The notes: generated by a model not told the origin, from the sequence alone. Counted from the stretch's first letter, positions 34,561 through 55,304 are shown. The stretch is DNA of 64,000 nucleotides from Nibricoccus sp. (GCA_047602425.1 JASGHG010000001.1:1950263-2014262); one strand, 5' to 3'. Numbers and translations are program-made.

Positions 34561-34621
34561 TTCCTGCCAAATTCCTGTCAGAATTTGTGCAATTTCCTGC
34601 AAATTCCTGCCATTCCTGTCA
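34561..34621 (+). repeat. Five direct copies of TTCCTG(C/T)(C/A)A (iteron / arm-type-site-like array)
   Basis: TTCCTGCCA at 34561, TTCCTGTCA at 34572, TTCCTGCAA at 34594, TTCCTGCCA at 34604, TTCCTGTCA at 34613. All are in one orientation, 80-140 nt left of the att-like fragment. Confidence 0.7.
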
Positions 34622-34701
34622 ACTTTGCTCAAAAATAGTTATGCTGGAAAATTATGTTAGTTACGTAATTTCAGCAGGATACATACCCGCTATAAATCGA
34701 A

Positions 34702-34728
34702 TTCAACTCCCGCCACCTCCACCAATTT
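34702..34728 (+). repeat. tmRNA/tRNA 3'-end fragment (att-like, left copy)
   Basis: TTCAACTCCCGCCACCTCCACCA+ATTT. There is no 5' T-stem partner and no gene body upstream. Confidence 0.75.
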
Positions 34729-34780
34729 TTATCACGTAAGTCGCTGGTAATTTGTCGTGGGGACCATAAAAGTGGTCTCC

Positions 34781-34970
34781 GCGACAGCGTATGGGGCCTT
34801 TTGGTTTGCGACAGCGTTTGCGCTCCACGCATTGTCGTATGCTAGTCCCTAGAGGTAAGCTGATCTTCTGCTAGATTTGCGACAGTGTATGCGCCCCCGA
34901 ATTAAGGAAGATTTCAAGACCGACGAACAAGTAGGAAAGTCCATTTTGCAGCTGTTCGGATTGCGACAGT
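34781..34970 (+). repeat. Four direct copies of (T)TGCGACAG(C/T) just inside the left island end
   Basis: GCGACAGCG at 34781 and 34808, GCGACAGTG at 34879, GCGACAGT at 34963. A related TTTGTGACAGCG lies at 54741-54752 near the right end. Confidence 0.6.
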
Positions 34971-34972
34971 CC

Positions 34973-35470
34973 TTACGTGCCACGAACTCGATGGGGCCAG
35001 GTATCCCCGTCTGCGTCAGTCACTCGTGTCCCTATATTGACAGTGTCACCCGGATAATAAGTCACTGTTTTGTCGTAGTCGGGATCGAGGGCCATTGGAT
35101 TGTGACGCTCAGGCACATCGAGATTCGGGTCTACAATTGCCTCGAAATGACTTCCTTCCTTCGCATGGAAACCGGATTTAAGATAAATGGTGCTCGCAGA
35201 ACCGAAGTAAATGTCGGCACCACCCGGTTCGATCACTACATTTCCAGACGTACTGATGGAGCCTTCGTCGAGAATGACAATAGACGGCGGGCTGCTAGCC
35301 GTATCCTTTAACAGCAGTCCAGTTCCTGTGATCACTACACTGCCACTGCCGTTCAAAGAGACGGTGGTGTCGGCAAGCAGTGCGCTCACCGAGGCCATAA
35401 AAAATATGCAGGCAATGAGACTTCGGAGTAAGCGGCTTGATCGCAAATTCTGCCTGATCTGAAGATTCAT
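34973..35470 (-). pseudogene. Truncated duplicate of the N-terminal third of the 35529-36944 gene
   Basis: By my manual alignment, about 130 of the first 156 residues are identical to the 471-aa neighbour (MNLQI.QNL.SSR..RSLIACIF...LKxGFHAKEG.HF.AIVDPNLDVPERHNP...). Similarity ends abruptly after ...RVTD.DGD and the ORF stops 9 codons later. Confidence 0.7.
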
Positions 35471-35528
35471 GGAATTGAATGGACGGCTAAAATAGCTTGC
35501 CTTTCACCGCGAGCGTTCGATTACGACT

Positions 35529-36944
35529 TTACTGGGGGGCGATATTATAAACTCGTGGATAGGGAGGTTCGGTATGGTTCCCATCCGAAGGTTTGTGCAG
35601 ACATGTATATGTGATTTTATCCAGATACAGGCCAAAAGGCACTGTGGGGTCTAACATCCAGTACCATCCAGTACCATCCTCCCAGAGAAGGTCCACACGA
35701 TCCACGACCCACGATCTCGTTTCTCGATGGTAGATTGCTATATTTATAAATGTCTTCTCTGCATGAAATCCATATTTGTCATTATACCAGAATAATACGT
35801 AACCATTTCCTGCTTTATATTTCAGATTGTAAAAGCCAGATAAATCCGGTGATCCCCAGCTCCAAGGAACAACGCCATTATCGTTGATCTCAAAATATAT
35901 TTGGATCTGTTTATTTGTGCCAGTTCCGCCTATGGTGGCACTTGTAACCGTGGTCGGAATATTGATCCACGAAAGCACCTTGACCGTTGTCTGTGCCGAG
36001 TAAACCCAATCACTTACTGAATCTTTTACGGCCGTCCTCAGGGCATAGGTTCCAGGTAGGTAAAAATCTATACTGGCTGTATAAGTAGCGTCGCTTTGAT
36101 TTCCAGAAAGCGTCCCGGCGACAAACACCCAATCGCCGCCGGGTATTTTAACCTGGAGACCTATTGAAATCATGTCTCCATCTTGGTCCGTGGCATGGGC
36201 CGACACCTGCAAAACCTCGCCTGGATCTACAACCGAGGACTTCGGGACACTAGGTGCCGAAGGCACAGGCAGATGACTGCCAATGCTGATTGGCACTTCA
36301 TTCGAATAGATCCAGTCGCTCACTGAGTCCTTGGCGGTCGTGCGCAATAGAAATACTCCCCCAGTTGGAAACTGCACGGGAACCGTCTTCTGCGAGTCAC
36401 CACTCGAAGAGTATGACCAGTTGGCGAGAGTCACCCAATCGCCGCCTTCCTTCACTTGCAACGCATGAACGGTTATGTCTCCGTCGACATCAGTGACTCG
36501 TGTCCCTATATTGACAGTATCACCCGGATAATAAGTCACTGTTTTGTCATAGTCGGGATCGAGGACCACCGGATTGTGACGCTCAGGCACGTCCAGATTC
36601 GGGTCTACAATCGCCGTGAAATGACACCCTTCCTTCGCATGGAAACCAGGCTTGAGATAAATGGTGCTCGCAGAACCGAAGTATACATCGGCACCATCCG
36701 GTTCGATCGCTACATTTCCGGACGTACTGATCGAGCCTTCATCGAGTATGCCAATAAACGGCGGGGTGCTAGCCATATCCTTTATCATAAGCCCAGTTCC
36801 TGTGATCACTATATTGCCACTGCCATTCACGGATACAGTGGTGTCGGCAAGCAGTGCGCTCACCAAGGCCATGACAAAAATACACGCAATGAGACTTCGG
36901 ATGAAGCGGCTTGATGGCAAATTCTGCATGATTTGAAGATTCAT
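35529..36944 (-). CDS. Secreted protein: N-terminal LKPGFHAKEG-type module, two Ig-like repeats, unknown C-terminal domain
   Basis: Signal or anchor (IACIFVMALVSALLA). STIYLKPGFHAKEGCHFTAIV is a motif I recall from '3-coathanger stack'-annotated proteins. Two internal repeats (...TDVDGDITVHALQVKEGGDWV...AKDSVSDWIYS / ...TDQDGDMISIGLQVKIPGGDWV...VKDSVSDWVYS). A W/Y-rich roughly 130-aa tail follows. Confidence 0.7.
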   Translation of the reverse strand: MNLQIMQNLPSSRFIRSLIACIFVMALVSALLADTTVSVNGSGNIVITGTGLMIKDMASTPPFIGILDEGSISTSGNVAIEPDGADVYFGSASTIYLKPGFHAKEGCHFTAIVDPNLDVPERHNPVVLDPDYDKTVTYYPGDTVNIGTRVTDVDGDITVHALQVKEGGDWVTLANWSYSSSGDSQKTVPVQFPTGGVFLLRTTAKDSVSDWIYSNEVPISIGSHLPVPSAPSVPKSSVVDPGEVLQVSAHATDQDGDMISIGLQVKIPGGDWVFVAGTLSGNQSDATYTASIDFYLPGTYALRTAVKDSVSDWVYSAQTTVKVLSWINIPTTVTSATIGGTGTNKQIQIYFEINDNGVVPWSWGSPDLSGFYNLKYKAGNGYVLFWYNDKYGFHAEKTFINIAIYHRETRSWVVDRVDLLWEDGTGWYWMLDPTVPFGLYLDKITYTCLHKPSDGNHTEPPYPRVYNIAPQ

Positions 36945-37098
36945 GGTATTAAATTGAAGATAATATAGCCTGTTTGTTATCGCTAGAGCTCAATTGTGAC
37001 TACAGAGAATGCGGTTTGTCTTTCGCAGCATTATACTTGGTCAAGAGTCAAGACCTGACGTGTTTTTGCTCGTCTGTTGTGACGTGTTTTGCTCGTTT

Positions 37099-37305
37099 TT
37101 AGTCTGTTCTGATTTTCTTGATCGCCAAGGCAATACCGATCAAAAGGAATAGTGATATAAATATCACCGTTATCGCTTTGAATTGAACAGGGCTATAGCC
37201 AAACATAAGGTAGAGGACTGAACACGCGAATAATGACATCACCGCGCCGCCAATAGCACCACACAGTAGTCCGACAACGACAGTATATACTTTATTGTAA
37301 TTCAT
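37099..37305 (-). CDS. Small two-TM membrane protein, putative immunity protein for the RHS C-terminal toxin
   Basis: 68 aa with two hydrophobic helices (VVVGLLCGAIGGAVMSLFACSVLYL; ITVIFISLFLLIGIALAI). Its ATG overlaps the RHS stop codon (ATGA, 37302-37305). Confidence 0.65.
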   Translation of the reverse strand: MNYNKVYTVVVGLLCGAIGGAVMSLFACSVLYLMFGYSPVQFKAITVIFISLFLLIGIALAIKKIRTD

Positions 37306-40300
37306 TTATAATAATTATGAGCGGGTTGCGGTGCTGCACCTCCTGAGAAAAATAAATCCGTGACCGGAGATAAGTTCGCAACGACTACACCGGCCCCGGT
37401 ACCCAACTGGGTACCTAAAGTAGGCGGAGCTTTTTCACCGCGGAATAGGAGCGGCTTCCAACGCCCTTGTAAGGCCCCAGAATCGAGGAGGCCCTGCGTA
37501 AACGGACTTGGTTGCACAAATGACGCAAAGGCCCTTTCTGTGAGATCACCGGCTATAGATCCTCCAGCGCCAAACAGACCTCCTACGGTTGCAGCATACC
37601 CCAAATCTTTTTCCCAATCCGAACCACTAGCCACATTTTTCACTATTTGGCCAGTGCCGTTGATGACCGCACTACCTACACCGTTCAATACGGCACGACC
37701 GAGTATATTAGTCGTAAGCTGTGCAACCTTTCCTCCCAATCCTACGCCTGCCGCTCCAGCAAGACCACTCACTAAAACAGATGTTTTGTTCACCTTCGAC
37801 CAATCTCCATGATTACTTATCAGCTGCACTGTAAGATCTACTCCGGCGCCAATAAAAAAGCCCGCAATAGCCCAAGCAAATTTGCCTTCCGGGTCGGTCA
37901 TCATCACCGGGTTTCCGTTTGCAAACGCATACCAATTCATACCACCCGCAAAGCCAATTGGGTCGGCGTTTAGGAATCGTTGGGTATATGGGTTATAAAA
38001 CCTAGCTCGCATATAAACCAATCCACTCGACTCAGTCATCACTCCCAATGAACCGTGCAGAAGAAATGGAGTGTCAGCGCTGCCAGTTTGTGACCTCACC
38101 TGGCCGTAGGCCGCATATTCCCAACGTCCAAGTACCGAGGTGCCATTGTCGCTTGAGAGGGCGATAGTACTTCCCTGATGGTTGTAGTGGTAGGTTTTAG
38201 TGGCTCCATCTGTTTCTTCGTAAACAAGCCCGATTCCCCAAACATAGCGTGTGATCGTCCCGCCATTGTTGCGCACGAGGACCCGGCTGAGTGAAGCATT
38301 GGGGTCGACCAAGTAGTGGATCGAACCCACCCGATAGCGGTGGCCTTCGGGGTTGTAGCCGTAGCTGACATTGTTGCAGCTGCTGAGTCGATTGCGACCG
38401 TCGTAAGTATAACTGCCGAACGAGCCATCTTTTGGCAATGGACCTAGCGTCATGTTTCCATCGTCGTCGTGAATAACAGGAACGTCGTTCCACGTCTCCA
38501 ATCGGTTGTCGTTGTCGTAGGTCGCCGAGTAATAAGGCGCTGAAGTAACTCCGCCGGAGTCCGAGACCGGAGCGGTAACCGCGAGGTCAATCCGACCATC
38601 CTTGTCGTAGCGCAACACCTGTTGCCAAATCACATTCCCCAAGACATCGAGTTCCTGAACAAAGCAAAGCTGGCTTGCGGCGTCATATTGCATATTTCGC
38701 TTTGTTCCATTGGGCCGATACACCTGTTTGAGCCTGCCTCCTGCATCGTAAGCGTAAGATGTAACCCGCCCGTTCCAGTCACTGACCGATGCCATGCGGT
38801 TGTAGGCATCATATCCATAGGTTACCACCTTGTTGCCTGGGTAGGTGATCGTCTCCAGATTGCCAGCAGCATCATAAGTGTACTGAAGCGTGTTACCATC
38901 TCCATCCCGGTACAATTTCAACCGATTGAAATCGTCGTATTCTCGATGGGTGGTCATGCCGCCCTCCGATACTTCATGCAACATGCCGTTGGGATAATAG
39001 CTGAATGTCGTCTCAATACCCAAACCGTCTTTTTGCTTCAGTAGGCGGCCTTCGGCATCGTACTCTTTGAATTCGGTGACTCGCAGCGAAGGAGCAGTGA
39101 CCGTCTTTAACAAGCCACGCGTATCTTTTTCAACAATCGTACTTTTCTGCTCAGGAGTCTTGGTCGTCACCTTTCGCGCGACATCGTCGTAGGTCCAAGT
39201 ATAAGTCTGCTCCCGCCGGTTCTTGAGCGTTTTTGGACGCCCATCCTTGTCATAGCCATGGATGATCGAAAAGCCCATCGCGTCACCAGTAGAGTCAACT
39301 AAGCCCAAGCTATTGTAGACGCTATCAGTTTCGTGCCCCAGCGCCGTCTTCATGTAGTTACGCTGGCCGTTTGCATCGTAATCGAAATAGGTGTGTCGGA
39401 CGAGTGGATCGATCGTTTCTTTGAGCCGTGACGCGTCGTCATATTTAAACTGCGTATCGTTGCCAAAAGCATCGATAGTGAAGCCCAAGAGATTCCGTTC
39501 GTCGTAATGCTGCGATTTTACTACCTGGCCATCCGCTCCCTTCACCTCAATAAGGTTGCCCAAAGCATCATAGTCATAATCGACTTTATTATTGCGAGGA
39601 TCCAAGATGTAATCAACAGCACCAGCATCATCATATGTCGTCGTGGAAACAATAGAATCGCTCGGCGGAGTTCCTCCCACTGGTGAAGTCGCATCGTAAA
39701 GGCCGGACCATTGAACAGTTTTGGTTTTTTGCCGGCGTTTGTTATATTCGAAGGTCGTTTTCCGTCCACCGCGATCGATGAACTGTATAACATCACCCCG
39801 CGCATTCAGGTCGGTGATCTCGGTTGGGGCGGTCGTATCGGTCGGGGCGGTCGGGTAGGTGGCAGTTACTCGTTTTGTGTAACCCGCGACATCAGTATAC
39901 ACATAGCTAATGACTTCCCCTGCGGCGAATGCTGTCGGGTGTACCGTCAACACACGCCCACGCGAATCGTAAGTATATGAAGTGGTAAAGCCTCCAGTCG
40001 CTGTCACGTTCTTCACTTTGTGATACCCGTAGTATTCCGTAGTCGTTTGATTTCCTTCAAACGAGTTTTCCACACGCGAAGTTGAACTGTCGTCGTTCTC
40101 CGGAGTGATCGTTCGCGAGTTGCCGTCAGGATTGGTAACCTGGTTAACCTCGTGATGGGCGTCATAGGCCATTGTCGTCTCTTCACCTTTGGGCGACCGT
40201 GTATACTCTACCCGGTCGTTTCCGTCGTAGCCCCATCGCGAAACATTGCCGAGTTGGTCTCGGTAGGCGATCTTCCGACCACGCTCATCGAAATACGTCC

Positions 40301-43268: not shown

Positions 43269-43287
43269 GACTTAAATATAGTAAAAT

Positions 43288-44094
43288 TTACTGAGGTCCT
43301 TCCACGTTCCCTTCCTTGTCATATTTATGCGTTCGCGTGGGATCAGCTGTGAGACGATTATTTGCGTCATACTGATAACGGGCGGTGGCTGCTGGGTTGG
43401 GCGTGCTAGCCGCATTGTACGGACTGGAACCACTCGCAATCTCGACATAGTCGGGGTAGCCATCGTTATCGAAATCGATCGATGCAGCTGGAGACTCGAT
43501 CGTGAATCTCTTTCGCACCGTAGGGGTAGAGGCCCCTGAACGATCAGTGACTATAACAACCACAAAATGCAGTCCCGTACCCAGTTCGATGGGACAACAC
43601 GTGTAGCTAAAGCCTGCTCCGAGGTATCGGCTTGATGGCCCCGGGTATCCCAATGAGTTTACGGAATAGTCAGCAATATCCGGTCGGGCGAGTCCTACCG
43701 AAGGCCTTCCGACAAATATACCGTCGATGTATATTTTTATCGAATCGACCGGTGTCCCATCATCCCGGTCGACTGCCCACCCGCCTATATTCAAAATCCC
43801 CCCCTGCAGGTAAGCCGTTTCCAACGATGCAAGGGGCGGAGAGTTCACAATCGCATGGAAATAACTTCCTTCCCTGGCTTGAAAGCCGGCCTTTAAGACA
43901 ATCTGAGACGATGCAGAATACGTTACATTGGCACCGCTTTCAACAGTCACATTTGGGCCAGCCTCAATCGTCGATGGTCCTGAGACGGTCGTTGAGACCC
44001 CTGAAGAATACGTAACATCCTGTATGATTGTTTGGGCTCTGAGTCCCAACGCGGTCAACAACCAAAATAAAAGCAACAATGGAATTCGTTTCAT
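43288..44094 (-). CDS. Secreted accessory protein: LKAGFQAREG-type module, Ig-like domain, DNDG calcium-binding-like motif, C-terminal YD repeat
   Basis: Signal peptide MKRIPLLLLFWLLTALGLRAQ. SSQIVLKAGFQAREGSYFHAIV, IDFDNDGYPDYVE, and a terminal YQYDANNRLTADPTRTHKYDKEGNV. Its stop lies 19 nt upstream of the RHS start. Confidence 0.7.
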   Translation of the reverse strand: MKRIPLLLLFWLLTALGLRAQTIIQDVTYSSGVSTTVSGPSTIEAGPNVTVESGANVTYSASSQIVLKAGFQAREGSYFHAIVNSPPLASLETAYLQGGILNIGGWAVDRDDGTPVDSIKIYIDGIFVGRPSVGLARPDIADYSVNSLGYPGPSSRYLGAGFSYTCCPIELGTGLHFVVVIVTDRSGASTPTVRKRFTIESPAASIDFDNDGYPDYVEIASGSSPYNAASTPNPAATARYQYDANNRLTADPTRTHKYDKEGNVEGPQ

Positions 44095-44149
44095 ATTTTG
44101 AAAGGGCCAAGGCAGGTTAGTAATAGGTTTCTAATAATTTTTAATTCAG

Positions 44150-45062
44150 CTAGTTACTGCTCTTGAGCCGTGTGATTTCCGTTTGTTGAGCAGCTATTTG
44201 AAAAGCTTGGGCTTCGATTTTAGATTTCTGTTCGTTAAGCTGTTTCTGCTGGTTGATGACGTGCAAAGTCAGCTCTTCAACTTTAGCCAAGAGGATCGGC
44301 CTGCATATCGCCGATGGAGACGCCGTTGGCAGCAACCTCCGTCGCCGAGGGCACGCCGGGCAAATGGCCTTGCTGCTCGATATGCCGCTCCACCTCGGCA
44401 AGCGGTGCTAACTTGTAGTCTTTGGCAAAAACGCAGTCCGACCAGTTGGTGGTTTCAACAACCACTTCTCTCGCGCGAATCCTTCCATTGACCGAAAGCT
44501 TTTCATTCGGGCTCGTCGTTCCGATACCGACATTTCCACCAACTGCTATATGTAATCTTGAAGTTTTCGCTGAATTAAAATCCTCAACGATATCGAAGGA
44601 GTTAGAGTTCCTAGCTACGGAACCACAAGTTAGCCCCCAACTATTGCCATAGGCATTCAATGAAAGCACTGCTTCAGCCAGCACACTTTGGCTATCGTTG
44701 CGTACCGCCGCTACAACTGCACTATCTACCGTCTTCCACAGATGCAGATCATAAATTGGTCCTACAGACCCAATGCCAATGTTGCCGTTATTATCAATCC
44801 GAAGACGGACCATTCCCGCTACATCATCATAGAATTGAAATCCTCCAGGAGTACCCACGCTTGGACCAAGTCGAAAACTGTGACCCAAAGAGTCCTGCAA
44901 TTGCAGAGGGTCCGTCGCAGTATTACCGACTAGCGTCAGTCTTGCTGCAGGATTGCTAGTACCAATACCGACATTGCCTGATTCAGGCCAAGGATAAGTA
45001 TTTTGAGAGTAACCAGCAGCTGAGGTCATGAGAAACGTAACAAAAGCGGCGATCTTTTTCAT
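44150..45062 (-). pseudogene. Tail-fibre-like secreted protein, paralogue 1 of 9 (frameshifted in the conserved C-terminal module)
   Basis: ORF 44283-45062 ends ...GVSIGDMQADPLG*. The expected continuation ILLAKVEELTLHVINQQKQL...coiled coil is in ORF 44150-44401 in another frame. An extra C sits in GCAGGCCGATCC (about 44298-44301), where intact paralogues read GCAGGCGATCC. Confidence 0.8.
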
Positions 45063-45076
45063 GGGGGTAATAAAAG

Positions 45077-46285
45077 CTATAATGTTTTATTCAGTTTTGT
45101 GTTTTCTGTTTTAAGAGCGGCAATTTCGGCTTGTTGGTCATTGAGACGCTTCTCTTGCTGGATCTGGCGGAGCGTCAGTTCTTCAATCTTGGCGAGGAGG
45201 ATTGCTTGCATATCACCGACGGAGACGCCTTTGGCGGCGACTTCCTGCGCGGAGGGGACTCCGGGGAGGTGCCCTTGTCGTTCGATGTGTTGCTCGACTT
45301 CGCTGAGCGGTGCCAGCTTGTATTCCTTAGCGAAAACGTAGTCTGACCAATTCGTCGTCTCCACGATCACTTCCCTCGCCCGAATCCTGCCATTGACCGA
45401 AAGCTTCTCATTCGGGCTTGTCGTACCTATGCCGACGTTGCCATCGCCACGTATCACCATCTTTGAGTTTGCTGGAGCCGATCCCTTGAGTCGGAAATCG
45501 ATAAATGTATTGTCACTATTATAAGTGTTAGCTATAAAAACCTTGTTAGCGGTTGGATCCTCACCAAGCCGACCCATGTAGTACGTTTGTGATCCGAACG
45601 CAATGACCTCTCCATCGGTGTCATCCCATCGCCTTACGTCCAAAATGGCGCTAGGACTTGCGGTGGCTATACCGATTTTCCCACCGCTCCCTGTAACAAA
45701 CATAGCGTCATTAAGGTTAAGGATCTTGTATAGGGATTGCGTTCGATCATATGAGATCAGTCTCCCTCGATCGGCCGATGTTTGATATGTGAGCTCAACA
45801 CCTCTACCAACCGAAGGCAGTCCGACCTCATCCGTAACAGACACTGCACCTGCAATATCTAGCTTAGATCTCGGGGTAATCGTACCCACTCCGACGTCAC
45901 CTGAGCCGCCCAATACAGTGATCCCTCCTCCGTATAAGTCGCCACTACTTAAGGGACCACCAAGAAAAACACGATCGTTAACCGCTCGCAATACGCCGAT
46001 CCAATCCGAACCCGCCTGATTTGGGGCTAATATCCCACTGTTACCGACAAGGATTTGCCCAGCGCCTGTGAAATTGCCACCCGGGACAAGCGCTGGATCG
46101 ACATTCAGCGCAAGCGACCGTGCTGGCTGATTCACGCCTAGACGCAATGCCTTGTAGTACGAGCTATACCCAAAGTTTGTTTCCTGAATGGGAATCTGAT
46201 CGGGTCCTACGTAAACCGTCTGCGCGAGAACAGACGCAACTGCAGCAACTGCAAACAGGACTAGGATGCTAAGATTTTTTTTCAT
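45077..46285 (-). CDS. Tail-fibre-like secreted protein, paralogue 2 of 9
   Basis: Signal peptide and a divergent N-terminus. Internal GDVGVGTITPRSKLDI / GKIGIATASPSAILDV. Conserved C-module GNVGIGTTSPNEKLSVNGRIRAREVIVETTNWSDYVFAKEYKLAPLSEVEQHIERQGHLPGVPSAQEV...MQAILLAKIEELTL plus a coiled coil. Confidence 0.85.
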   Translation of the reverse strand: MKKNLSILVLFAVAAVASVLAQTVYVGPDQIPIQETNFGYSSYYKALRLGVNQPARSLALNVDPALVPGGNFTGAGQILVGNSGILAPNQAGSDWIGVLRAVNDRVFLGGPLSSGDLYGGGITVLGGSGDVGVGTITPRSKLDIAGAVSVTDEVGLPSVGRGVELTYQTSADRGRLISYDRTQSLYKILNLNDAMFVTGSGGKIGIATASPSAILDVRRWDDTDGEVIAFGSQTYYMGRLGEDPTANKVFIANTYNSDNTFIDFRLKGSAPANSKMVIRGDGNVGIGTTSPNEKLSVNGRIRAREVIVETTNWSDYVFAKEYKLAPLSEVEQHIERQGHLPGVPSAQEVAAKGVSVGDMQAILLAKIEELTLRQIQQEKRLNDQQAEIAALKTENTKLNKTL

Positions 46286-47277
46286 TTTTGGCCTTCTTTC
46301 TCAATTAGCTTTTGCTGAAGCCGGACATTTTCCGATTCGAGAGTTTGAACTCGTTTTTCCTGTGCAATTACGTGCAGCGTTAATTCTTCAATTTTCCCCA
46401 AGAGGATGGCTTGCATGTTGCCGACAGAGACGCCGTTGGCAGCAACCTCCTTCGCCGACGGCACGCCTGGCAAATGACCTTGCTGCTCGATATGCTGCTC
46501 CACCTCGGAAAGCGGTGCTAACTTGTAGTCCTTGGCAAAAACGCAGTCCGACCAGTTGGTGGTTTCAACAACCACTTCCTTCGCCCGAATTTTGCCATTG
46601 ACCGAGAGCTTTTCGGTCGGGCTCGTCGTGCCGATGCCGACGTTGCCGGAAGCTGCCAAATATACCCTCTCGGTCCCGTCGGTAACTGGATTTCCACCCA
46701 AGGCATTGGACTGCATAAAAGCGAGATCACCGTAGGAGGTTCTGCCTTGCACGAGCGCCCAATTTCTCGAATTTGATTGTGTATAATCATTCAAAAACGC
46801 GATCCCACTTCCGCCTATACCTGACAAACCAGTATCATGAAATGCGGTAATAATATTCTGAGATACCTTTGCCACTTCCAACGCATAACCCGGCGCTGAA
46901 GTTCCGATGCCAACATTATTGTTGGCTTTTAGCACAATGTATCCACCCGCAGGATTATTTCGATTAAATAGGAATATATCCTCACCTGTCGTACTTCCAT
47001 TAAAGATCCCGATTGCTCCACTACTGAAACCAACATTATAGACATTTCCGCTTTGTCCTGCATAAAAATTACCGTGGTTGAAGCCCCAGTACCCCTGAGG
47101 CGCTTTCGCGATAAAGCTGATTAGCCCATTGGCTGTAATCGTACCATTTACTTCGAGAGCTGAAGTCGGGTTCATTGTACCAATACCGACACTTCCGGAC
47201 GCCGGCCAGGGAGTATTTTGTGCATAGCTGCTGACCGCGCCGATGAATGACGACAAGACTATCGATAGAATTTTCAT
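46282..47277 (-). CDS. Tail-fibre-like secreted protein, paralogue 3 of 9
   Basis: Signal peptide, YAQNTPWPASGSVGIGTMNP, and the conserved C-module. Its stop overlaps the start of paralogue 2 by 4 nt. Confidence 0.85.
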   Translation of the reverse strand: MKILSIVLSSFIGAVSSYAQNTPWPASGSVGIGTMNPTSALEVNGTITANGLISFIAKAPQGYWGFNHGNFYAGQSGNVYNVGFSSGAIGIFNGSTTGEDIFLFNRNNPAGGYIVLKANNNVGIGTSAPGYALEVAKVSQNIITAFHDTGLSGIGGSGIAFLNDYTQSNSRNWALVQGRTSYGDLAFMQSNALGGNPVTDGTERVYLAASGNVGIGTTSPTEKLSVNGKIRAKEVVVETTNWSDCVFAKDYKLAPLSEVEQHIEQQGHLPGVPSAKEVAANGVSVGNMQAILLGKIEELTLHVIAQEKRVQTLESENVRLQQKLIEKEGQK

Positions 47278-47342
47278 GATGAAGAACTCGACAAGTAACG
47301 TGCGAATAATCGGGATCCAGAAACGAAAGAATTATGACTTTG

Positions 47343-48581
47343 CTAGGGATGGGTGGATTTTAGATGGGCAATCTCGGCTTGTTGGGCGGCAATTTGCGTC
47401 TGTTGCGTATTTAGCTGCTTCTGCTGGCGGATCACGTGCAGTGTGAGCTCTTCGATTTTCGCGAGGAGGATAGCTTGCATATCGCCAATGGAGACACCGT
47501 TGGCTGCAACCTCCTTCGCTGAGGGCACGCCGGGCAAATGACCTTGCTGTTCGATGTGCTGTTCCACCTCGGAAAGCGGTGCTAACTTGTAGTCCTTGCC
47601 AAAAATATGGTCCGACCAGTTGGTGGTTTCAACAACCACTTCTCTTGCACGAACTCGGCCGTTGACCGAAAGTTTCTCGCTCGGATTCGTCGTACCGATA
47701 CCGACGTTGCCCAAAGGATCAATGGTAGCGGCATCTAGGTTGCTATTACCGTCCGAAACACGGAACGTTATTCTCCCCTTAGTGCCGCCGGCATAAACAG
47801 AGCCGAAGTATGCGTTATCGCCACCCTCGCCGGATGCTCCCCCTCCATACGAAACAAATGCGTAGCAGTTTGAAGAATTCGGTCTTGAAACTCGCAACCC
47901 GTCAGAAAGCAATCCGGCACTATTTAAATTCTGAACATGAAGTTTTGCTTCCGGGCTGGCGGGGCCAACGGCGAGGCTGCCCGTAGTCACGATATTTGTA
48001 TTCGTTGAAGTTATGAGATTTCCAGCAATAATGTGTGCCTGCCCTCCAGCTGGAGTTTCCTCAACATTATGTATAGTAATGGCGCCTTTGCTATCTATTA
48101 CACGCCACGCTACAGTCGGTGCATATTCCGACGCTCGGATTCTAATATATACCGTACGCGGCCCGCCGGTGCTACCAACCACGCGGACTTCCCGAAGATG
48201 CTCATTGTAAGTTTGTCGCTCTACACTAAAACCCACGCGGTCATTAAAGTAGGTTCCAAAAACCTTCACTTCGGCAATTTCTTCGCTCGCATTCGAACCA
48301 CTGCGAATTTGAAACCTAACGTAGTGGTTGTTAGGAATTGTCGCTAATTTGATCCATCTTTCATCACCAATCCCGAGGGATATACTTTGCAGCGAGGAGA
48401 AATATAGTTCTCCGATTCTAAATGATCCTCCTACATGAGTGTCACCACTCACATCGAGGGTAAAATTAGGATTAGTCGTGCCAATTCCAACGTTCCCGGA
48501 CGCGGGCCAAGGATACGTGTTTTGAGCATAAGTGCTGCCTGCAAAAACAAGCCCAAATATAAATGAGATGAAATATTTCAT
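47343..48581 (-). CDS. Tail-fibre-like secreted protein, paralogue 4 of 9
   Basis: Signal peptide, YAQNTYPWPASGNVGIGTTNP, a unique core, and the conserved C-module plus coiled coil. Confidence 0.85.
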   Translation of the reverse strand: MKYFISFIFGLVFAGSTYAQNTYPWPASGNVGIGTTNPNFTLDVSGDTHVGGSFRIGELYFSSLQSISLGIGDERWIKLATIPNNHYVRFQIRSGSNASEEIAEVKVFGTYFNDRVGFSVERQTYNEHLREVRVVGSTGGPRTVYIRIRASEYAPTVAWRVIDSKGAITIHNVEETPAGGQAHIIAGNLITSTNTNIVTTGSLAVGPASPEAKLHVQNLNSAGLLSDGLRVSRPNSSNCYAFVSYGGGASGEGGDNAYFGSVYAGGTKGRITFRVSDGNSNLDAATIDPLGNVGIGTTNPSEKLSVNGRVRAREVVVETTNWSDHIFGKDYKLAPLSEVEQHIEQQGHLPGVPSAKEVAANGVSIGDMQAILLAKIEELTLHVIRQQKQLNTQQTQIAAQQAEIAHLKSTHP

Positions 48582-48598
48582 TGATTCTGAATTTACGA

Positions 48599-49804
48599 TT
48601 ACTTGGCCTGCGCTTTAAGCCGTGTATTTTCTGACTCCAAAGCTTCGATACGCTTTTCTTGTCTAATTGCGTGGAGCGTTAACTCTTCAATCTTAGCCAA
48701 TAGAATCGCTTGCATTTCGCCCATCGAAACCCCTTTCTCCGCCACGTCTTTCGCCGAAGGAACGCCAGGGAGATGCTTCTCGATTATGATGTGCTGTTCA
48801 ACCTCGGTCAAAGGCTGCAACTTGTACCCATCGGCAAACACGTAGTCCGACCAATTCGTCGTCTCTACGACCACTTCTCTTGCGCGGATTCGGCCGTTGA
48901 CTGACAGTTTTTCGGTTGGGCTCGTCGTACCGATGCCAACGTTGCCACCTTCGGGATTCAATAAGAGGGAATAACTAGTTCCACTCTGCAATGTAGTATT
49001 ACCTGTGGCATTATTATACAATTCCAGCGTCCCGGCTTGCGCCGCAGTTGGTGTACCGTAACCAAGTCCAGAGCCAAGTTTTCCGCTATTGGATATGGCA
49101 ACGCTTCCGCAAACTTCTAATGTTTTGGATGGACTCGTCGTTCCGATGCCGACGCTGCCATTCGCATCAATACGCATACGTTCGGATATATTGACTGCGC
49201 CTCCATCAGTCGACGTTTGAACGGGCCCCGTTAAAAACGCAATGTATCCTCCGTTGGCCTCGATTGCTGAACGTGATGCTGGAACCTCGGTGCTGGATAC
49301 ATAACCAATGTCCAAATGTTTTGCCTTAACGGCATAGCCAAGAAACGACGCACCAGAACTATATTGCGAACCAAGCACGAACAGCGTGCCGCTGCCATAC
49401 GCACCGTAGAGATAGTCCACCCCCCAAGTGCTGTTATCATAGCCAGCGGTAATCGGGCCAATCACATGCAACGGTGTGCGTGGGCTCGTCGTGCCAATAC
49501 CGACGTTGCCGCCGCCGGGGTTAAGGCTTAACGGGTAGTACTGTACTCCGGTTTTCATCGCTTGGACGTATCCATAACCGAAGTCGGCTCGAAAACCGAT
49601 TCGCGTGCCTTCTGGGCTTCCATCTCCAGGATCAGACGAAGCCGCACCACTAAAGAGACCTGAGCCGACAACCGCCAATTTCGTACTAGCTCCCGGGTTA
49701 GTCGTTCCGATACCAATGTTGCCGGAGTTCTGCCAGAGGTTTGTTTGAGCGTAGCTGGTGGTAATGACGGCGAGCGGAAAAAGGAGGACTGTGTAGATTT
49801 TCAT
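48599..49804 (-). CDS. Tail-fibre-like secreted protein, paralogue 5 of 9
   Basis: Signal peptide and four GN(V/I)GIGTT punctuation motifs (GNIGIGTTNPGAS, GNVGIGTTSPRTPLHV, GSVGIGTTSPSKTLEV, GNVGIGTTSPTEKLSV), then the conserved C-module. Confidence 0.85.
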   Translation of the reverse strand: MKIYTVLLFPLAVITTSYAQTNLWQNSGNIGIGTTNPGASTKLAVVGSGLFSGAASSDPGDGSPEGTRIGFRADFGYGYVQAMKTGVQYYPLSLNPGGGNVGIGTTSPRTPLHVIGPITAGYDNSTWGVDYLYGAYGSGTLFVLGSQYSSGASFLGYAVKAKHLDIGYVSSTEVPASRSAIEANGGYIAFLTGPVQTSTDGGAVNISERMRIDANGSVGIGTTSPSKTLEVCGSVAISNSGKLGSGLGYGTPTAAQAGTLELYNNATGNTTLQSGTSYSLLLNPEGGNVGIGTTSPTEKLSVNGRIRAREVVVETTNWSDYVFADGYKLQPLTEVEQHIIIEKHLPGVPSAKDVAEKGVSMGEMQAILLAKIEELTLHAIRQEKRIEALESENTRLKAQAK

Positions 49805-49849
49805 ATGGATGTTTTAACCACTGATATTCATTGATGAACACTGATATAG

Positions 49850-50791
49850 TTATATACTCCCGGCTTTGAGCTGGGCGTTTTCCGCTTCGAGGGCTTTGAT
49901 TCGCTCGTTCTGCGATGCGAGCTGTTTCGCTTGCTGAATTTGATGCAATGTCAGTTCCTCAATCTTCGCCAAGAGGATCGCCTGCATGTAGCCAATGGAG
50001 ACGCCCTTCTCAGCCACTTCTTTCGCGGACGGAACTCCGGGAAGATGCTTCTCGGTTATGATGTGCAGCTCCACCTCGGCGAGTGACTGCACCTTATAGC
50101 CGTCGACAAACACATAATCCGCCCAGTTCGCTGTCTCCACAATCACTTCCCTCGCGCGGATTCGGCCGTTGACTGAGAGCTTTTCCGATGGGCTCGTCGT
50201 GCCGATGCCGACGTTGCCAGTGTTGGCTTGAATTCTTACCTTCTCGCTGCCGTCCAGATTGAACGTTATGAATCCACCAAAACCCGATGTTCCGGACTGT
50301 AGTTTTAATTCGCCGCTTTGAATATTAGCCAATAGGTTCGCCTGTATGCTTCCGTTCGTAGCGAAATTTATTCCTTTAAACTGGGAATTGTCGGTGCCGT
50401 TTAGAGTTAAAATTGGCGCAATACCCTTAACTTCCAGCAAGCTTGCCGGCGTAGTCGTGCCGATACCTATTTTACCACCGTTGGGATTTAAAAGTAGTGG
50501 ATAAATTTGAGTGAGATCCGTTTGGTTTGTTACCTGCAACGACCCTCCATCGCCGCCGTTCACGCTAAAATCAATCACGCCATTGCTACCCGCTCCCTGT
50601 AACCGAAGGATTCCAACTTGGTTTGATCCACTGCTCGCAGGAAAGCCGGTATCGCCAAGGATGTGTGTTCTCAATCCCGGGCTCACAATTCCGATGCCAA
50701 TATTACCGGAGGCAGGCCATGGATAAGTGTTTTGCGCGTAGCTATTGGCTATAATGGCGAGCGAAGTGAGGAGGAGTGCAAAAGATTTCAT
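49850..50791 (-). CDS. Tail-fibre-like secreted protein, paralogue 6 of 9
   Basis: Start placed at the internal MKSFALLLTSLAIIANSYAQ|NTYPWPASGNIGIG. Conserved C-module present. Confidence 0.85.
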   Translation of the reverse strand: MKSFALLLTSLAIIANSYAQNTYPWPASGNIGIGIVSPGLRTHILGDTGFPASSGSNQVGILRLQGAGSNGVIDFSVNGGDGGSLQVTNQTDLTQIYPLLLNPNGGKIGIGTTTPASLLEVKGIAPILTLNGTDNSQFKGINFATNGSIQANLLANIQSGELKLQSGTSGFGGFITFNLDGSEKVRIQANTGNVGIGTTSPSEKLSVNGRIRAREVIVETANWADYVFVDGYKVQSLAEVELHIITEKHLPGVPSAKEVAEKGVSIGYMQAILLAKIEELTLHQIQQAKQLASQNERIKALEAENAQLKAGSI

Positions 50792-50840
50792 CGGGGCATT
50801 TTCAACCACTGATTTTCACTAACGACCATGGATATAGGTT

Positions 50841-51896
50841 TTATTGGGATCGGGCTTTGAGCTGGCTGTTCTCGGTCTTGAGCGTGGTGACTTCAGCGCG
50901 AAGAGAGGCCAGTTCTTTTTCCTGCGCTATCTGGTGCAGTGTAATCTCCTCAATCTTGGCGAGCAGGATCGCCTGCATGTCGCCGAGTGAGACGCCGTTG
51001 GCTGTCACATCCTTCGCGGATGGGACGCCAGGGAGGTGCTTCTCCATTTTAATGTGCTGCTCGACCTCTGCCAAAGGTCGCAACCTGTAGCTATCTGCGA
51101 AAACGTAATCTGACCAATTGCTCGTCTCTACGACTACTTCTCTCGCACGGATTCGGCCGTTGACCGAAAGTTTTTCCGATGGACTCGTCGTACCTATGCC
51201 AACGTTGCCGTTCGATCCTTGTATAAACATTCGAATGCTCGGAGTATAAGCTGATCCGATGGTCAGGCCGATATTCGTGCTAATCGCCAGATTTCCAGCG
51301 GAGAAACTAACCTGCCCAGAATTTGAATCTCGAGCGATCCACCCGTTGCCCGATATGTATTCAGCATTGTGTGTTATTGCCAGTTCCCCGGAGTATCCGC
51401 TAAAATAGCCTCCACCCTGACCGCTGTTCAGGTTAACACGCAAAGATGTACCGGTGTCGCCAGGGCTGCCATAGCATTTATCGGCATAAATCACCGGAAT
51501 GTTGGTGCCCGTTGTAGGGCCAAGAATGTGCAGCGATGCTGTCGGAGCCGACGCGCCGATTCCAATACGACCAGCAGCATCAATTAATAATCTATCGGCG
51601 CAAGCAAGATTGTCAGCGAAATGCCATTTGCTTTCACCAGATCCGTCCACGTATATACCAAAGGTTCGCCCACCGACCGCTGTGTTGGAAAACTGAATCC
51701 CTGAACCCCAGCCGGGACCATTGCCGGTGAGATAAATCGCGGGAAAATTAACCGACGCCGAGTCTATATGCAAACGGCCAGAAACAGGGATGGTCGTTCC
51801 GATGCCAATATTTCCTGAATTCTGCCACAAATTGGACTGAGCATAACCAGCCGTTGTGGACGCAAAGACAATAAAATGAACCAAAGTGAATTTCAT
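50841..51896 (-). CDS. Tail-fibre-like secreted protein, paralogue 7 of 9
   Basis: Signal peptide, YAQSNLWQNSGNIGIGTT, and the conserved C-module plus coiled coil. Confidence 0.85.
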   Translation of the reverse strand: MKFTLVHFIVFASTTAGYAQSNLWQNSGNIGIGTTIPVSGRLHIDSASVNFPAIYLTGNGPGWGSGIQFSNTAVGGRTFGIYVDGSGESKWHFADNLACADRLLIDAAGRIGIGASAPTASLHILGPTTGTNIPVIYADKCYGSPGDTGTSLRVNLNSGQGGGYFSGYSGELAITHNAEYISGNGWIARDSNSGQVSFSAGNLAISTNIGLTIGSAYTPSIRMFIQGSNGNVGIGTTSPSEKLSVNGRIRAREVVVETSNWSDYVFADSYRLRPLAEVEQHIKMEKHLPGVPSAKDVTANGVSLGDMQAILLAKIEEITLHQIAQEKELASLRAEVTTLKTENSQLKARSQ

Positions 51897-51909
51897 CGAA
51901 TCATACTTG

Positions 51910-53115
51910 TCACTTAGCCGTGGTTTTTAATCGTGAATTTTCGGTTTCGAGAACCTGGAGTTTAGCCTGCAAATCATTGATCATCTTTGCCTGCGTAAGT
52001 TGGATTTTTTCCTGCGCGATTTGATGCAGTGTTAGTTCCTCGATCTTCGCCAAGAGAATCGCCTGCATATCTCCGATGGAAACGCCCTTTTGGCCGACCT
52101 CCTGCGCGGAGGGCACGCCGGGGAGGTGCTTCTCGTTTTTGATGTGCTGCTCCACTTCAGCCAATGGTTGCAACTTGTAGCTATCGGCAAAGACATGGTC
52201 CGACCAATTGGCCGTTTCAACGACCACTTCCTTCGCCCGTATCTTGCCGTTTACGGAGAGTTTTTCCGACGGGCTCGTCGTTCCTATACCGATATTCCCA
52301 CCACGGGTGATCGACAGTCTTTCTGCAAAAGTGCCGTCAGAATTAAGATCGTTTGTATATAGCCCTATCGTCGTTCCATAACCTCCATCACGACCGAATA
52401 CTATACCCGCCCCCCCGCCACCACCTGATTGGTATGTGATTCCATCCCAGCATACGTTACCGACATCTCCGTCTATTCGAATGCCATTTCCACTCAGCTG
52501 ATTGATATTAGAAGGGAGTGTTGTTTGGCTACTTCCGGCGATGGTCAAACGACTGGAGGGGGCAGTAGTCCCAATCCCGACCTTTCCACCAATCGGGTTG
52601 ATGACCAGGCTCTTATAGTTGTCTCCCGGCTTCACAGCTTGAATCCATGAATAACCCCCGTCGTTGATGCCTATGAGGAGCTTATTATCTGTGTTCTCGC
52701 CAGTACCCGTAGTGACCTGAAGAATCCCTTGATCAGTAACAGATGAACTCGACCCCGTAACCGATAATTTCCCCCAAGGCGTTTTTGTTCCTATCCCTAC
52801 GTTGCCGTAGTCATACATTGAAATTATCGCTTGGATATTGCCGTCCGAATATCGCTTATTGCCTATCGTAAATGTATACCCCGTCCGGTCTGAACTGAAA
52901 ATAAGTGCACCCTGATTTGGGTACTCCAAGTTCTCCATTGTCACCCCACGATAGCTGTTGGACAGCAATCTAATTGCGGTACTATTTACGTCCAATGCAT
53001 ATTGAGGATTCGTAGTCCCGATGCCGACATTACCTGCATTCTCCCACAGGTTGGTTTGCGTGTAACCAGCAACGGTAACCATAATAATACAGAGTAATGC
53101 AATGATGGATCTCAT
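51910..53115 (-). CDS. Tail-fibre-like secreted protein, paralogue 8 of 9
   Basis: Signal peptide, YTQTNLWENAGNVGIGTTNP, four punctuation motifs, and the conserved C-module plus coiled coil. Confidence 0.85.
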   Translation of the reverse strand: MRSIIALLCIIMVTVAGYTQTNLWENAGNVGIGTTNPQYALDVNSTAIRLLSNSYRGVTMENLEYPNQGALIFSSDRTGYTFTIGNKRYSDGNIQAIISMYDYGNVGIGTKTPWGKLSVTGSSSSVTDQGILQVTTGTGENTDNKLLIGINDGGYSWIQAVKPGDNYKSLVINPIGGKVGIGTTAPSSRLTIAGSSQTTLPSNINQLSGNGIRIDGDVGNVCWDGITYQSGGGGGAGIVFGRDGGYGTTIGLYTNDLNSDGTFAERLSITRGGNIGIGTTSPSEKLSVNGKIRAKEVVVETANWSDHVFADSYKLQPLAEVEQHIKNEKHLPGVPSAQEVGQKGVSIGDMQAILLAKIEELTLHQIAQEKIQLTQAKMINDLQAKLQVLETENSRLKTTAK

Positions 53116-53144
53116 TATTTTATGAAGTTAAATCTAGAATAGAC

Positions 53145-54327
53145 TTACGGCTTAGTTGCCTTTAATCGCTCGTTCTGCGCCTTGAGATAAAACACCTCGT
53201 TCTGGAGCGAGTTGAGCGATTTTTCCTGCGCGATCTGCTGCAATGTTAGTTCTTCGATTTTTGCCAGAAGGATGGCCTGCATGTCGCCGACGGAAACGCC
53301 GTTGGCGGCAATTTCCTGCGCGGACGGCACACCGGGTAGGCGCTTCTCGGTTTTGATGTGCTGCTCTACTTCGGAGAGCGACTGTAACTTGTAGCTATCG
53401 GCAAACACGTAATCCGACCAACCCGTCGTCTCTACGATCACTTCCTTCGCCCGGATCCTGCCATTGACCGAAAGCTTCTCGCCCGGGCTCGTTGTGCCAA
53501 TGCCGACGTTGCCACCATTCTCTTGGAGCGTAACTGGCTCTCCGCTTGATGTTGTATATATTGCCAGCCGCCTAGCAGCATTGAACCATTTGATATAGCC
53601 TGCCTGACTATACCACGTTCCTAGGCCAAGGTAAGAATCCACCGACTGCCCTCCCGAAAGCCACGCCCCATAATAGTCTCCGTCTGAACCCACATTAAAC
53701 GTTCCTCCAACTACGCTCAACTTTTGCATCGGAGTAGTCGTGCCGATGCCAATATTGCCGTTTTTAAGAACGGTCCAAGGATTTGAAAACGCTCCGTTAT
53801 AACCCTCCAATGTGAACATCGAGTCCCGTGCACTGAATTGCCATGCAGAAATTGAGGTGTTGTATATGCCTCCACCTGTAACAGCTCTGTTGAAGCCAAG
53901 TCCCGCTGTTTCGCCCGCTCGAATGCTGATGGCATTCGCTCCACCGTCAGAAATCACTAATTTATCTCCAGGATTGGTCGTCCCAATGCCGACATTGCCA
54001 CCCAATGGGTTAAGCGCAAGAGGGTAGCAAAATCCATTAGCTCCATTGTTGCGGGTCTGCATCCACCATGCATTCAAGGCGCTTTGATCATAACCCATCG
54101 CTAGGTCTACTCCTCCGTTACCCGCAGTGAAATTTACGATAGCCGAAGCCGTAGAGTTGAGCGACGGCGCGAACGTCGAAGCATTCTTAACCGTCAAGGC
54201 AGATGTCGGACTCGTTGTGCCTATACCAACGTTGCCAGAAGCAGGCCAAGGATATGTATTTTGGGCGTGGACTACAGTTGCAGCGGCGAGGCTCGAAGGA
54301 GGCGAGGAGCAGGAGGTGTTTGCTCAT
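53145..54327 (-). pseudogene. Tail-fibre-like secreted protein, paralogue 9 of 9 (frameshift inside the signal peptide)
   Basis: The track ORF (53145-54197) starts inside the protein. Its frame is open up to 54323 and reads ...SLAAATVVHAQNTYPWPASGNVGIGTTSPTSALTVKNAS..., but contains no start codon. The only ATG (54327, MSKHLLLLASFE...) is in another frame. The two frames join near 54292. Confidence 0.75.
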
Positions 54328-55221
54328 AAAGATAGGGTTGGACGAAGTTAAAGCGGAACAAGTGCAGGCGCAGACCTGCCTTTACCTTGTGGTGCAAGAG
54401 GGCGGTGCGACCCAAAAGAACAGCGGGCCGGCTTATTGGGCCAACTAGCTGCAACCAGCGGTTGGGGTGGCCATGAGCGGGCAGCCTGAGCAAGCTACCG
54501 GACAGCCAGAAGCCATGCCGGAAGGCACGGACGTGCGGAGCGTAACAGCTCGAAAGCATAATTGAAGGGTTGCGCGACAGGTAATGACGGCATGAACGCC
54601 ATCGGCGTGATGCGATCTGGGGTCCTACCCTATCGCGCCAAGTCACCCGCCAAGGGTTTCCCACGTGAAAAGAGTTGAATGCTAGATCAGTTCCCAATTC
54701 GCCGAACCATTTGCCTGATGTCAATACGTTTTCTTCAGTTTTTGTGACAGCGCAGCAAATTTCAGGTCACAGCAGTTGCGTCGATCGCACACAAAAACTG
54801 CCCACAGCGCCCGTATGGCGTCGGTCAAATTCTAAACCACGCTTCAATGGGATTTGCGTTCCCTACAAAAAACCCTTCACCCAATTCTTATCGGCTTTCT
54901 TATCGGTTTTGAAACCCCGACTCGCCAAGCAGAGTGAAAATTCAAAATACTGCACATTGTTCATCTGTCAGTTTACAAACGCAATGGACGTAGATGGACG
55001 TCCTTCAGAAAACTTAAAATCCCTTGTCCGAAAGGATGTGCATCCAAAACCGGCGAGGGTCGAAATGAAGCATACGAACAGAGTATCTAACCGCTAGATT
55101 GCCGCTAAAATGGTTAGCTTAAGCCTAACTTTTTGATACGGACAGAGGCCATAAATTATAATTAAAACATTTATCTTGAACAACTTACTAAAGTATTTAA
55201 TTTTCTATAAACTGCCCAAAC

Positions 55222-55253
55222 GCGGGTTCAACCCCCGCCACCTCCACCAATTT
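55222..55253 (+). repeat. tmRNA/tRNA 3'-end fragment with complete T-arm and encoded CCA (att-like, right copy)
   Basis: GCGGG-TTCAACC-CCCGC-CACCTCC-A-CCA followed by ATTT. Compare the E. coli ssrA 3' end GCGGGUUCAACUCCCGCCAGCUCCACCA. The upstream sequence is AT-rich and not tmRNA- or tRNA-like. Confidence 0.75.
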
Positions 55254-55255
55254 GC

Positions 55256-55304
55256 AAAAAGCGCTGTGACATATTTTTATTTCGCAGCGCTTTTTTGTTT
55301 TTTT
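55256..55304 (+). terminator. Rho-independent terminator (bidirectional-looking) immediately after the CCA end
   Basis: AAAAA-GCGCTG-(18-nt loop)-CAGCGC-TTTTTTGTTTTTTT. It could also terminate the convergent radical SAM gene. Confidence 0.75.

Follow-up and report, generated by a model that had tools for sequence, protein, structure and literature searches.

The genome of Nibricoccus sp. (Opitutaceae, Verrucomicrobiota) contains, within a stretch of 64,000 nucleotides (GCA_047602425.1, JASGHG010000001.1:1950263-2014262; henceforth referred to as 'the window'), two short direct repeats that resemble the 3' end of ssrA, the gene for transfer-messenger RNA (tmRNA). Between them lies a 20.5-kb block (henceforth 'E1') that encodes an RHS repeat protein and nine fibre-like proteins. 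A preliminary description of this DNA, made from the sequence alone, read both repeats as scars of integrations into ssrA and the block as an immobilised element. The locus thus raises the question of what the two repeats are and how E1 came to lie between them. The answer that we prefer, and to which we assign a probability of about 0.75, is that the repeats are the junctions of integrative elements stacked in tandem at the ssrA 3' end, an array in which the left copy is the edge of a second, decayed element (henceforth 'E2') and E1 is an island of the cis-mobilisable type, having kept both attachment sites and no integration genes.

The repeat as the end of a tmRNA gene

On the + strand the left copy (34702-34724) reads TTCAACTCCCGCCACCTCCACCA and the right copy (55227-55249) reads TTCAACCCCCGCCACCTCCACCA. 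Re-reading of the sequence confirmed that the two are identical at 22 of 23 positions, as originally described, and that both are followed by ATTT, which extends the identity to 26 of 27. When up to three mismatches were allowed, the 23-mer was found only at these two places in the window and in none of 100 dinucleotide-preserving shuffles, and a scan for a third, degenerate copy with the 16-mer CCCGCCACCTCCACCA (also with up to three mismatches) returned only the same two copies and one chance match inside a kinase gene. The copies differ at one base of the T-loop, which is C in the right copy and T in the left, and in their extent: the right copy has 7 nt more of ssrA-like sequence on its left side (ACGCGGG, 55220-55226) and a complete T-arm (GCGGG/TTCAACC/CCCGC). 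Past the right copy lies an inverted repeat with 18-nt arms (55256-55273 and 55278-55295), and the segment 55213-55300 is predicted to fold with -30.8 kcal/mol (z = -6.0 against shuffles), so that the full T-arm and the terminator of the preliminary description are both borne out.

The radical SAM protein of the right flank is 100% identical to that of a Nibricoccus sp. metagenome-assembled genome (Opitutaceae). The 27-mer TTCAAYYCCCGCCACCTCCACCAATTT was scanned through one genome per species and gave 50 loci; as the pattern itself contained ATTT, the scan does not speak to how general these four bases are. In 16 of 18 loci from Opitutaceae or other Verrucomicrobiota, an intact tmRNA gene ends exactly in the 27-mer. 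Since 16 intact tmRNA genes share this end, the repeat is, judged by sequence, the genuine ssrA 3' end of Opitutaceae, and the two copies in the window derive from ssrA, in line with the earlier reading as an ssrA-type end. At relaxed Rfam thresholds the sole match in the window was to the tmRNA model RF00023 (55213-55249, 14.5 bits, E = 0.097), which aligns to the right copy and spans the T-arm and the 3' acceptor strand only. Neither ARAGORN nor Rfam at gathering thresholds detected a tRNA or tmRNA gene anywhere in the 64 kb; both copies lack a gene body upstream, as had been noted, and the intact ssrA, whose position the preliminary description left open, is not in the window. The right copy was also considered as a permuted or degenerate tmRNA gene, and this was dropped as ARAGORN and Infernal detect no 5' acceptor strand or tag region there. 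That the 23-mer might instead be a chance or dispersed repeat unrelated to tmRNA is suggested only by the absence of a tmRNA gene from the window. We regard it as refuted by the empty shuffles, by the exact match to the 3' ends of intact tmRNA genes, 16 in number, from the same family, by the T-arm and terminator at the right copy and by the recurrence of an identical junction in three other genomes, which is described below.

Displaced ssrA fragments that start in the T-loop recur across genomes. The opitutaceal locus L016 has a body-less fragment (6691-6717) that begins exactly at TTCAAC, as does the left copy in the window, and a Pseudomonadales metagenome-assembled genome (MAG; locus L033, 4304-4434) carries a second fragment with a T-loop start 104 nt past the end of its intact gene. 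Among viral contigs, the 27-mer was found only in one phage with its own complete tmRNA, an AT-rich contig in IMG/VR (L056:593-1035) whose tmRNA has the tag AREEYDNLVQFEQAEELEMVA and a 3' end identical to the 27-mer.

Element E2 and its right junction

The DNA to the left of the left copy is a module of an excisionase-like gene, an antitoxin gene, a zeta-toxin-like gene and a non-coding arm with AATTCCTGYCA repeats (Table 1), which we assign to the right end of E2. Four other assemblies (L137-L140) share its Phd and zeta protein clusters, defined at 90% identity, and from 32850 to 34705 or 34747 the window is 90-92% identical in nucleotide sequence to all four. The left boundary of the module (CTACTGTTATTACGGTAG..CGTGAATTCGGAGGG) is equally sharp in the window and in the four relatives (window 32850; L137:9127; L138:7704; L139:5503; L140:9128), and the DNA to its left varies, being made up of polysaccharide-utilisation genes, a MacB-type transporter, a recombinase module or gp25/Tsi6-like genes. 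Going by these sequences, the shared boundary looks like a fixed point of cargo exchange inside E2.

At its other end the module gives way to the ssrA fragment at an identical nucleotide in the window, L138, L139 and L140 (..AATCGAA|TTCAACTCCCGCCACCTCCACCA). The E2 junction is thus conserved in three other genomes, and it lies midway through the T-loop (..CGAA|TTCAACT); in L137 the homology stops after TTCA. What follows the fragment differs between the relatives. In L138 it is ATTGCAAAAGG and then a terminator hairpin, in L139 a terminator hairpin immediately, and in both the terminator is followed by ordinary-looking genes without mobility functions and the 20.5-kb block is absent. In L140 about 20 nt homologous to the start of E1 are followed by different cargo. 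The bases past CCA in L138 (ATTGCAAAAGG) resemble those past the right copy of the window (ATTTGCAAAAAG), a likeness over about 10 bases that, taken alone, is weak evidence. We read the hairpin at 55256-55301 as the native ssrA terminator, by analogy with those that follow the L138 and L139 fragments and several intact ssrA genes.

Since the ssrA similarity of E2 starts in the T-loop, the fragment to its right would be the displaced native end of ssrA, which would also explain why terminators follow the fragments of L138 and L139. The alternative that the fragment travels as a part of E2 was dropped, because identity between the genomes ends at or just past CCA, as expected of a conserved gene end with divergent flanks. 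On this sequence comparison the left copy forms the right-hand junction of E2, and each copy marks a different element: in E2 the ssrA similarity starts mid T-loop, in E1 upstream of the T-stem. The original proposal that both copies are attachment-site scars is therefore upheld insofar as both are junctions of integrated elements, and is amended for the left copy, which is not a bare, stand-alone scar.

Upstream of the E2 module, L138-L140 encode a protein of 494-521 amino acids (aa) with Resolvase and Recombinase domains, that is, a large serine recombinase, and the recombinase module sits near the right junction, 3-5 kb away; L139 and L140 also have two ParB/RepB genes and one DUF932 gene. 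The window lacks all of these genes. No recombinase domain was found by Pfam in the open reading frames (ORFs) screened, which comprised all large ORFs, those of E1 included, and tblastn of the window gave no match to any of the queries, namely five mobility proteins from relatives of E2 (large serine recombinase, ParB, DUF932 and HTH_3) and a tyrosine integrase. By these searches, the statement that the block has no integrase holds for the whole window. E1 keeps both attachment-site repeats and has no detected integration or transfer genes. Elements that lack a recombinase and keep both attachment sites can be moved in trans. The word 'immobilised' in the preliminary description is an inference only.

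Table 1. Features of the E2-E1 region in window coordinates, with the basis of each assignment
Feature	Position	Strand	Basis or remark
E2 right-end module (second, decayed integrative element)	32850-34701	+	Pfam; nucleotide identity to L137-L140
HTH_17 excisionase-like gene	32931-33170	+	Pfam, 31.8 bits
Phd/YefM antitoxin	33367-33726	+	Pfam
Zeta-toxin-like ATPase	33723-34379	+	Pfam
E2 non-coding arm, AATTCCTGYCA repeats	34559-34621	+	Repeat search
Left ssrA 3' fragment	34702-34728	+	T-loop to CCA plus ATTT; without 5' strand of T-stem
E1 left end	34729-34984	+	Homology to L140 up to 34747; repeats; fold
165-aa signal-peptide protein	34973-35470	-	NCBIfam NF045639 (3-coathanger stack), 26.2 bits, just over 26-bit cutoff
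471-aa signal-peptide protein	35529-36944	-	NF045639, 24.6 bits, just under cutoff
68-aa hydrophobic ORF	37099-37305	-	Directly downstream of RHS gene; Pfam matches weak, below threshold
RHS repeat protein, 1988 aa	37302-43268	-	Pfam
268-aa signal-peptide protein, 3-coathanger stack domain	43288-44094	-	NCBIfam; just upstream of RHS gene
Nine paralogous fibre-like genes	44283-54197	-	Alignment; profile matches
Right end of block, no convincing gene, ~1 kb	54198-55219	.	ORF, repeat and promoter scans
Right ssrA 3' fragment	55220-55253	+	ACGCGGG, complete T-arm, 3' acceptor strand, CCA, ATTT
Terminator-like hairpin, then T-run	55256-55301	+	Inverted repeat and fold
PA0069-family radical SAM gene, chromosomal flank	55371-56501	-	Collinearity with L055

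A proposed pair of integrations and the whereabouts of ssrA

The arrangement can be accounted for by two successive integrations. E2 would first have crossed over midway through the T-loop of ssrA (TTCA|A), displacing the native 3' end of the gene and its terminator to the right side of E2. In a second step E1 would have inserted between the displaced fragment and the terminator; it looks inserted at this point because the fragments of L138 and L139 run straight into a terminator. E1 would have brought an attachment site of its own with a 34-nt copy of the ssrA end (ACGCGGG-TTCAACC-CCCGCCACCTCCACCA-ATTT), since the right junction, unlike the target fragment, has ACGCGGG and the C base. Recombination would have taken place within the shared stretch CCCGCCACCTCCACCAATTT, with strand exchange to the right of the T-loop base. 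The left copy would thus consist of the E2 arm and the T-loop of the target (T variant) joined to the left end of E1, and the right copy of the right arm and T-arm of E1 (C variant) joined to the native terminator. In the present state E1 would be without a recombinase, and E2 would have lost its recombinase module in this genome. The two junctions probably show the route by which the RHS toxin gene and the nine-gene array of secreted fibres were acquired, and, being known to the nucleotide, they make excision and mobilisation in trans testable.

Several observations weigh against this reading. The first group concerns E2 and its relatives: L137 (10890-10960) runs from the module and TTCA into unrelated DNA with an Endonuclease_NS gene and has no ssrA fragment, an unexplained junction that could reflect a secondary integration site or a deletion. 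The sites in L138 and L139, which join fragment and terminator without the block, have downstream genes other than those of the window; the comparison with relatives that the preliminary description had suggested therefore yielded two related sites without E1 and not strict empty sites of the same locus. Nor did tblastx reveal synteny between the regions past the fragments and the regions past intact ssrA genes.

The second group concerns ssrA itself. No intact gene is found within 34.7 kb upstream of the left copy, nor within 7-10 kb upstream of the L138 and L139 fragments, and a sibling MAG (GCA_047600805.1, JASGKG010000001.1) has no tmRNA in the 21 kb that precede the fragment, where E2 backbone, unannotated genes and Dnd (DNA phosphorothioation) genes were found instead. 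On the right flank, collinearity with the closest relative, L055 (~80% nucleotide identity), begins exactly at the stop codon of the radical SAM gene (55371), about 120 nt past the right copy, and L055 has a MarR gene, not ssrA, next to its radical SAM gene; two more distant relatives also lack ssrA at this place, and among relatives with 84%, 77% and 70% protein identity none has it beside this gene. In L004 (11180-17995; 70% protein identity) a dnd cluster precedes the radical SAM gene and a different island, which encodes a tyrosine integrase, comes after it; this flank seems to be a recurrent site of variation.

These absences are shared by an alternative in which the segment of E2 remnant, E1 and terminator formed at ssrA, in this lineage or in a donor, and was later moved away by inversion, translocation or horizontal transfer, with the functional ssrA at an unrelated locus and the genes at 1-32849 being ordinary chromosome and not cargo. 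Besides the missing tmRNA gene upstream and the right-flank relative without ssrA, it draws support from the left 32.8 kb, which has polysaccharide-utilisation functions (TonB-dependent receptors, glycoside hydrolases, an alginate lyase, LacI regulators and a sugar symporter) and no mobility genes, and from the E2 module, which is cut off at 32850 with no recombinase beside its excisionase-like gene. The sharp boundary at 32850 is, however, common to all five contexts and looks more like a point of cargo exchange within E2 than like a rearrangement peculiar to this genome. The same MAG also retains a backbone gene of E2 upstream of the window: MFT3868442.1 is at least 90% identical to the HTH_3 regulator beside the recombination module of the sibling MAG and lies about 8 protein accessions to the left of the first gene of the window, as counted from accession numbers (the window gene at 3169-6669 is MFT3868451.1). 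Homologues with at least 90% identity to the E2 recombinase, ParB and DUF932 genes were not found in the MAG of the window. With the HTH_3 homologue upstream and the E2 module downstream, the polysaccharide-utilisation genes lie between two E2 landmarks, and they occupy the same variable slot as other cargo in L137 and L140. The one left-flank gene that was tested (285 aa, 31578-32435) has no homologue above 40% identity, so that at least this gene looks accessory, and repeats of ssrA have been described at distances of up to 100 kb from the gene (PMC3146451). We therefore prefer an E2 that is very large or has been remodelled and an ssrA that lies farther upstream, probably more than 45 kb away, and hold a rearrangement that moved the array away from ssrA to be unlikely.

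The third group concerns the unity of E1. Its ends share no repeat motif (GCGACAG on the left, the TTCTTATCGG pair on the right), comparison of the arms of both copies with each other and with all loci in the analysis revealed no shared motifs, and no related copy of E1, whether with a recombinase or excised, was found, so that its arrival as a single unit is inferred. These points fit the view that the block is not a single element, the right copy and about 1 kb of non-coding DNA being the remnant of another element and the RHS gene and the fibre array having been gathered between the scars by other routes, for example duplication in place or homologous recombination. The fibre genes clearly arose by tandem duplication on the spot, and arrays of the same family are common in metagenomes (7-14 genes in several contigs, namely L058, L061, L063 and L078), where a scan with the fibre alignment found none beside a tmRNA gene or ssrA fragment within the DNA examined. 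Against such a composite origin stand the co-directional, tightly packed genes and uniformly low G+C content of the block, and the ~20 nt at its left end that also follow the L140 fragment and suggest a defined terminus. A further point is locus L012 (1-3100; Opitutaceae MAG JANQKV010000060), where an RHS locus converges on an intact ssrA 3' end in the same arrangement as at the left copy of the window; directly downstream of ssrA it has the C-terminus of an RHS toxin, an ankyrin-repeat ORF, an orphan RHS fragment and a 23-nt tandem repeat. Overall, we consider a composite origin distinctly improbable and retain the tandem array of E2 and E1.

The relatives of E2 also allow a bolder interpretation, which we find doubtful. 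E2-type elements might form an undescribed family in Verrucomicrobiota, with a large serine recombinase that inserts mid ssrA T-loop and a fixed cargo-exchange point at CTACTGTTATTACGGTAG; they might grow beyond 50 kb through the uptake of entire polysaccharide-utilisation loci, and the RHS/fibre block might be movable in trans by such a recombinase. If this were true, such movement would disseminate an arsenal of toxin and adhesins among Opitutaceae. In IMG/VR, 69 viral or proviral contigs (L142-L210) encode large serine recombinases 49-79% identical to that of E2, but neither a tmRNA gene nor a fragment of ssrA nor the HTH_17/Phd/zeta module is present in any of them, and the zeta-toxin protein has no relatives among viral contigs.

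Comparison with known systems and the cargo of E1

Williams reportedly wrote in 2003 of 'traffic at the tmRNA gene'. Such traffic is here documented in Opitutaceae, a family in which we know of no description of ssrA-linked islands. The case is otherwise the ordinary, textbook footprint of islands stacked at ssrA, a new instance of a known phenomenon in an under-studied phylum (Verrucomicrobiota) without bearing on open questions.

The closest parallel is Dehalococcoides, where tandem islands at ssrA are bounded by 20-bp direct repeats of ssrA lying up to 100 kb from the gene, insertion is mid T-loop by a large serine recombinase (DsiB), and islands without integration genes have been read as cis-mobilisable elements (PMC3146451). 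The window resembles these islands in its succession of islands, presumably downstream of ssrA, with directly repeated copies of the ssrA 3' end as their borders, in the mid T-loop insertion (at the E2 junction), in the lack of integration genes from some islands and in repeats that may lie tens of kb from ssrA; the large serine recombinase and ParB-like gene are here present only in the relatives of E2. In contrast to Dehalococcoides, which belongs to the Chloroflexota, the host is a member of the Verrucomicrobiota (Opitutaceae), the recombinase of the E2 relatives lies 3-5 kb from the right junction instead of at the left junction adjoining ssrA, E2 carries an HTH_17 gene and a Phd/zeta module, and the cargo is RHS and fibre genes and not dehalogenases. 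Furthermore, ssrA itself is not seen, and the left copy, being preceded by the arm of another element, is an internal junction of the array.

Accretion of integrative elements at one target, into attR, has been described for elements that target tRNA genes, together with the definition of cis-mobilisable elements (CIMEs) (PMC5704250). Like a CIME, E1 keeps both repeats, has no integration or transfer genes and shares the 3' end of its target gene with a second element, arranged in tandem. The definition of CIMEs was based on Firmicutes, with tRNA or protein-coding genes as targets, and mobilisation has been demonstrated for some of them (PMC5704250), whereas E1 is a candidate for it, and unlike a CIME it has a neighbour, E2, that has also lost its recombinase.

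All called genes between the two copies are on the - strand, so the earlier account of a co-directional cargo with an RHS toxin and nine fibre genes stands. The order of transcription is the nine fibre genes, the 268-aa gene, the 1988-aa RHS gene, the 68-aa ORF, the 471-aa gene and the 165-aa gene. The G+C fraction of the block is 0.47-0.53 compared with 0.51-0.58, mostly 0.53-0.58, in the right flank (55-64 kb).

The RHS protein is composed of DUF6531, the RHS shell and an unclassified C-terminal domain, with a weak, transglutaminase-like match at its N-terminus that falls below the Pfam cutoff, and its sequence matches in PDB are to Rhs proteins of the type VI secretion system, Tse5 and teneurin-like proteins. 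With DUF6531, the RHS repeat shell, a variable C-terminal domain, a small downstream ORF and similarity to type VI Rhs proteins, the locus resembles known polymorphic toxin loci of the Rhs type; from its position the 68-aa ORF may encode an immunity protein. It differs from such loci in that no VgrG, PAAR or type VI secretion genes were found among the window ORFs screened and in that its neighbours encode secreted fibre-like proteins and proteins with coathanger domains. Of the latter, the 165-aa protein is a truncated duplicate of the first 163 residues of the 471-aa protein (82% identical by blastp).

Each of the nine fibre paralogues (259-412 aa) combines GNVGIGT repeats with a middle region that varies and a C-terminal domain, about 100 aa long, that is conserved. 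A signal peptide is present in eight of them, and all but the 259-aa member (44283-45062), which is cut short at this point, have a coiled coil past the conserved domain. The family is without a Pfam or NCBIfam model, and PHROG tail-fibre models match only its repeat motif. A profile built from the nine paralogues matches structures of Bdellovibrio mosaic adhesive trimeric (MAT) fibres (8OND, 8OML), with E = 2e-16 and 1e-10 against the crystallised trimeric beta-helix regions of Bd2133 and Bd1334, respectively. The likeness to MAT fibres (PMC10769870) lies in this region; the window proteins are much shorter and have no S74 chaperone domain, and they are conserved towards the C-terminus and variable in the N-terminal or central part, whereas MAT fibres show the opposite arrangement. 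In the fibre gene nearest to the right copy (53145-54197), the reading frame runs on upstream (region 53145-54330) through ..AAATVVHAQNTYPWPASGNVGIGTT, with no start codon or hydrophobic signal segment before an in-frame stop, which suggests that this gene is probably degraded at its 5' end.

The left end of E1, which has about 20 nt in common with the element that follows the L140 fragment, contains a 15-bp hairpin without a U-run at ~34753-34786, as predicted by folding, and four GCGACAGYGTWTG repeats, three of which are exact (34781-34891) and the fourth, diverged, within a 30-nt repeat (34955-34984). The non-coding right end holds the TTCTTATCGG tandem pair (54885-54908) and an AT-rich stretch, and at 55133-55162 on the + strand a near-consensus match to a sigma-70-type promoter (TTGATA-18-TATAAT, 11/12) that is aimed at the right ssrA fragment.

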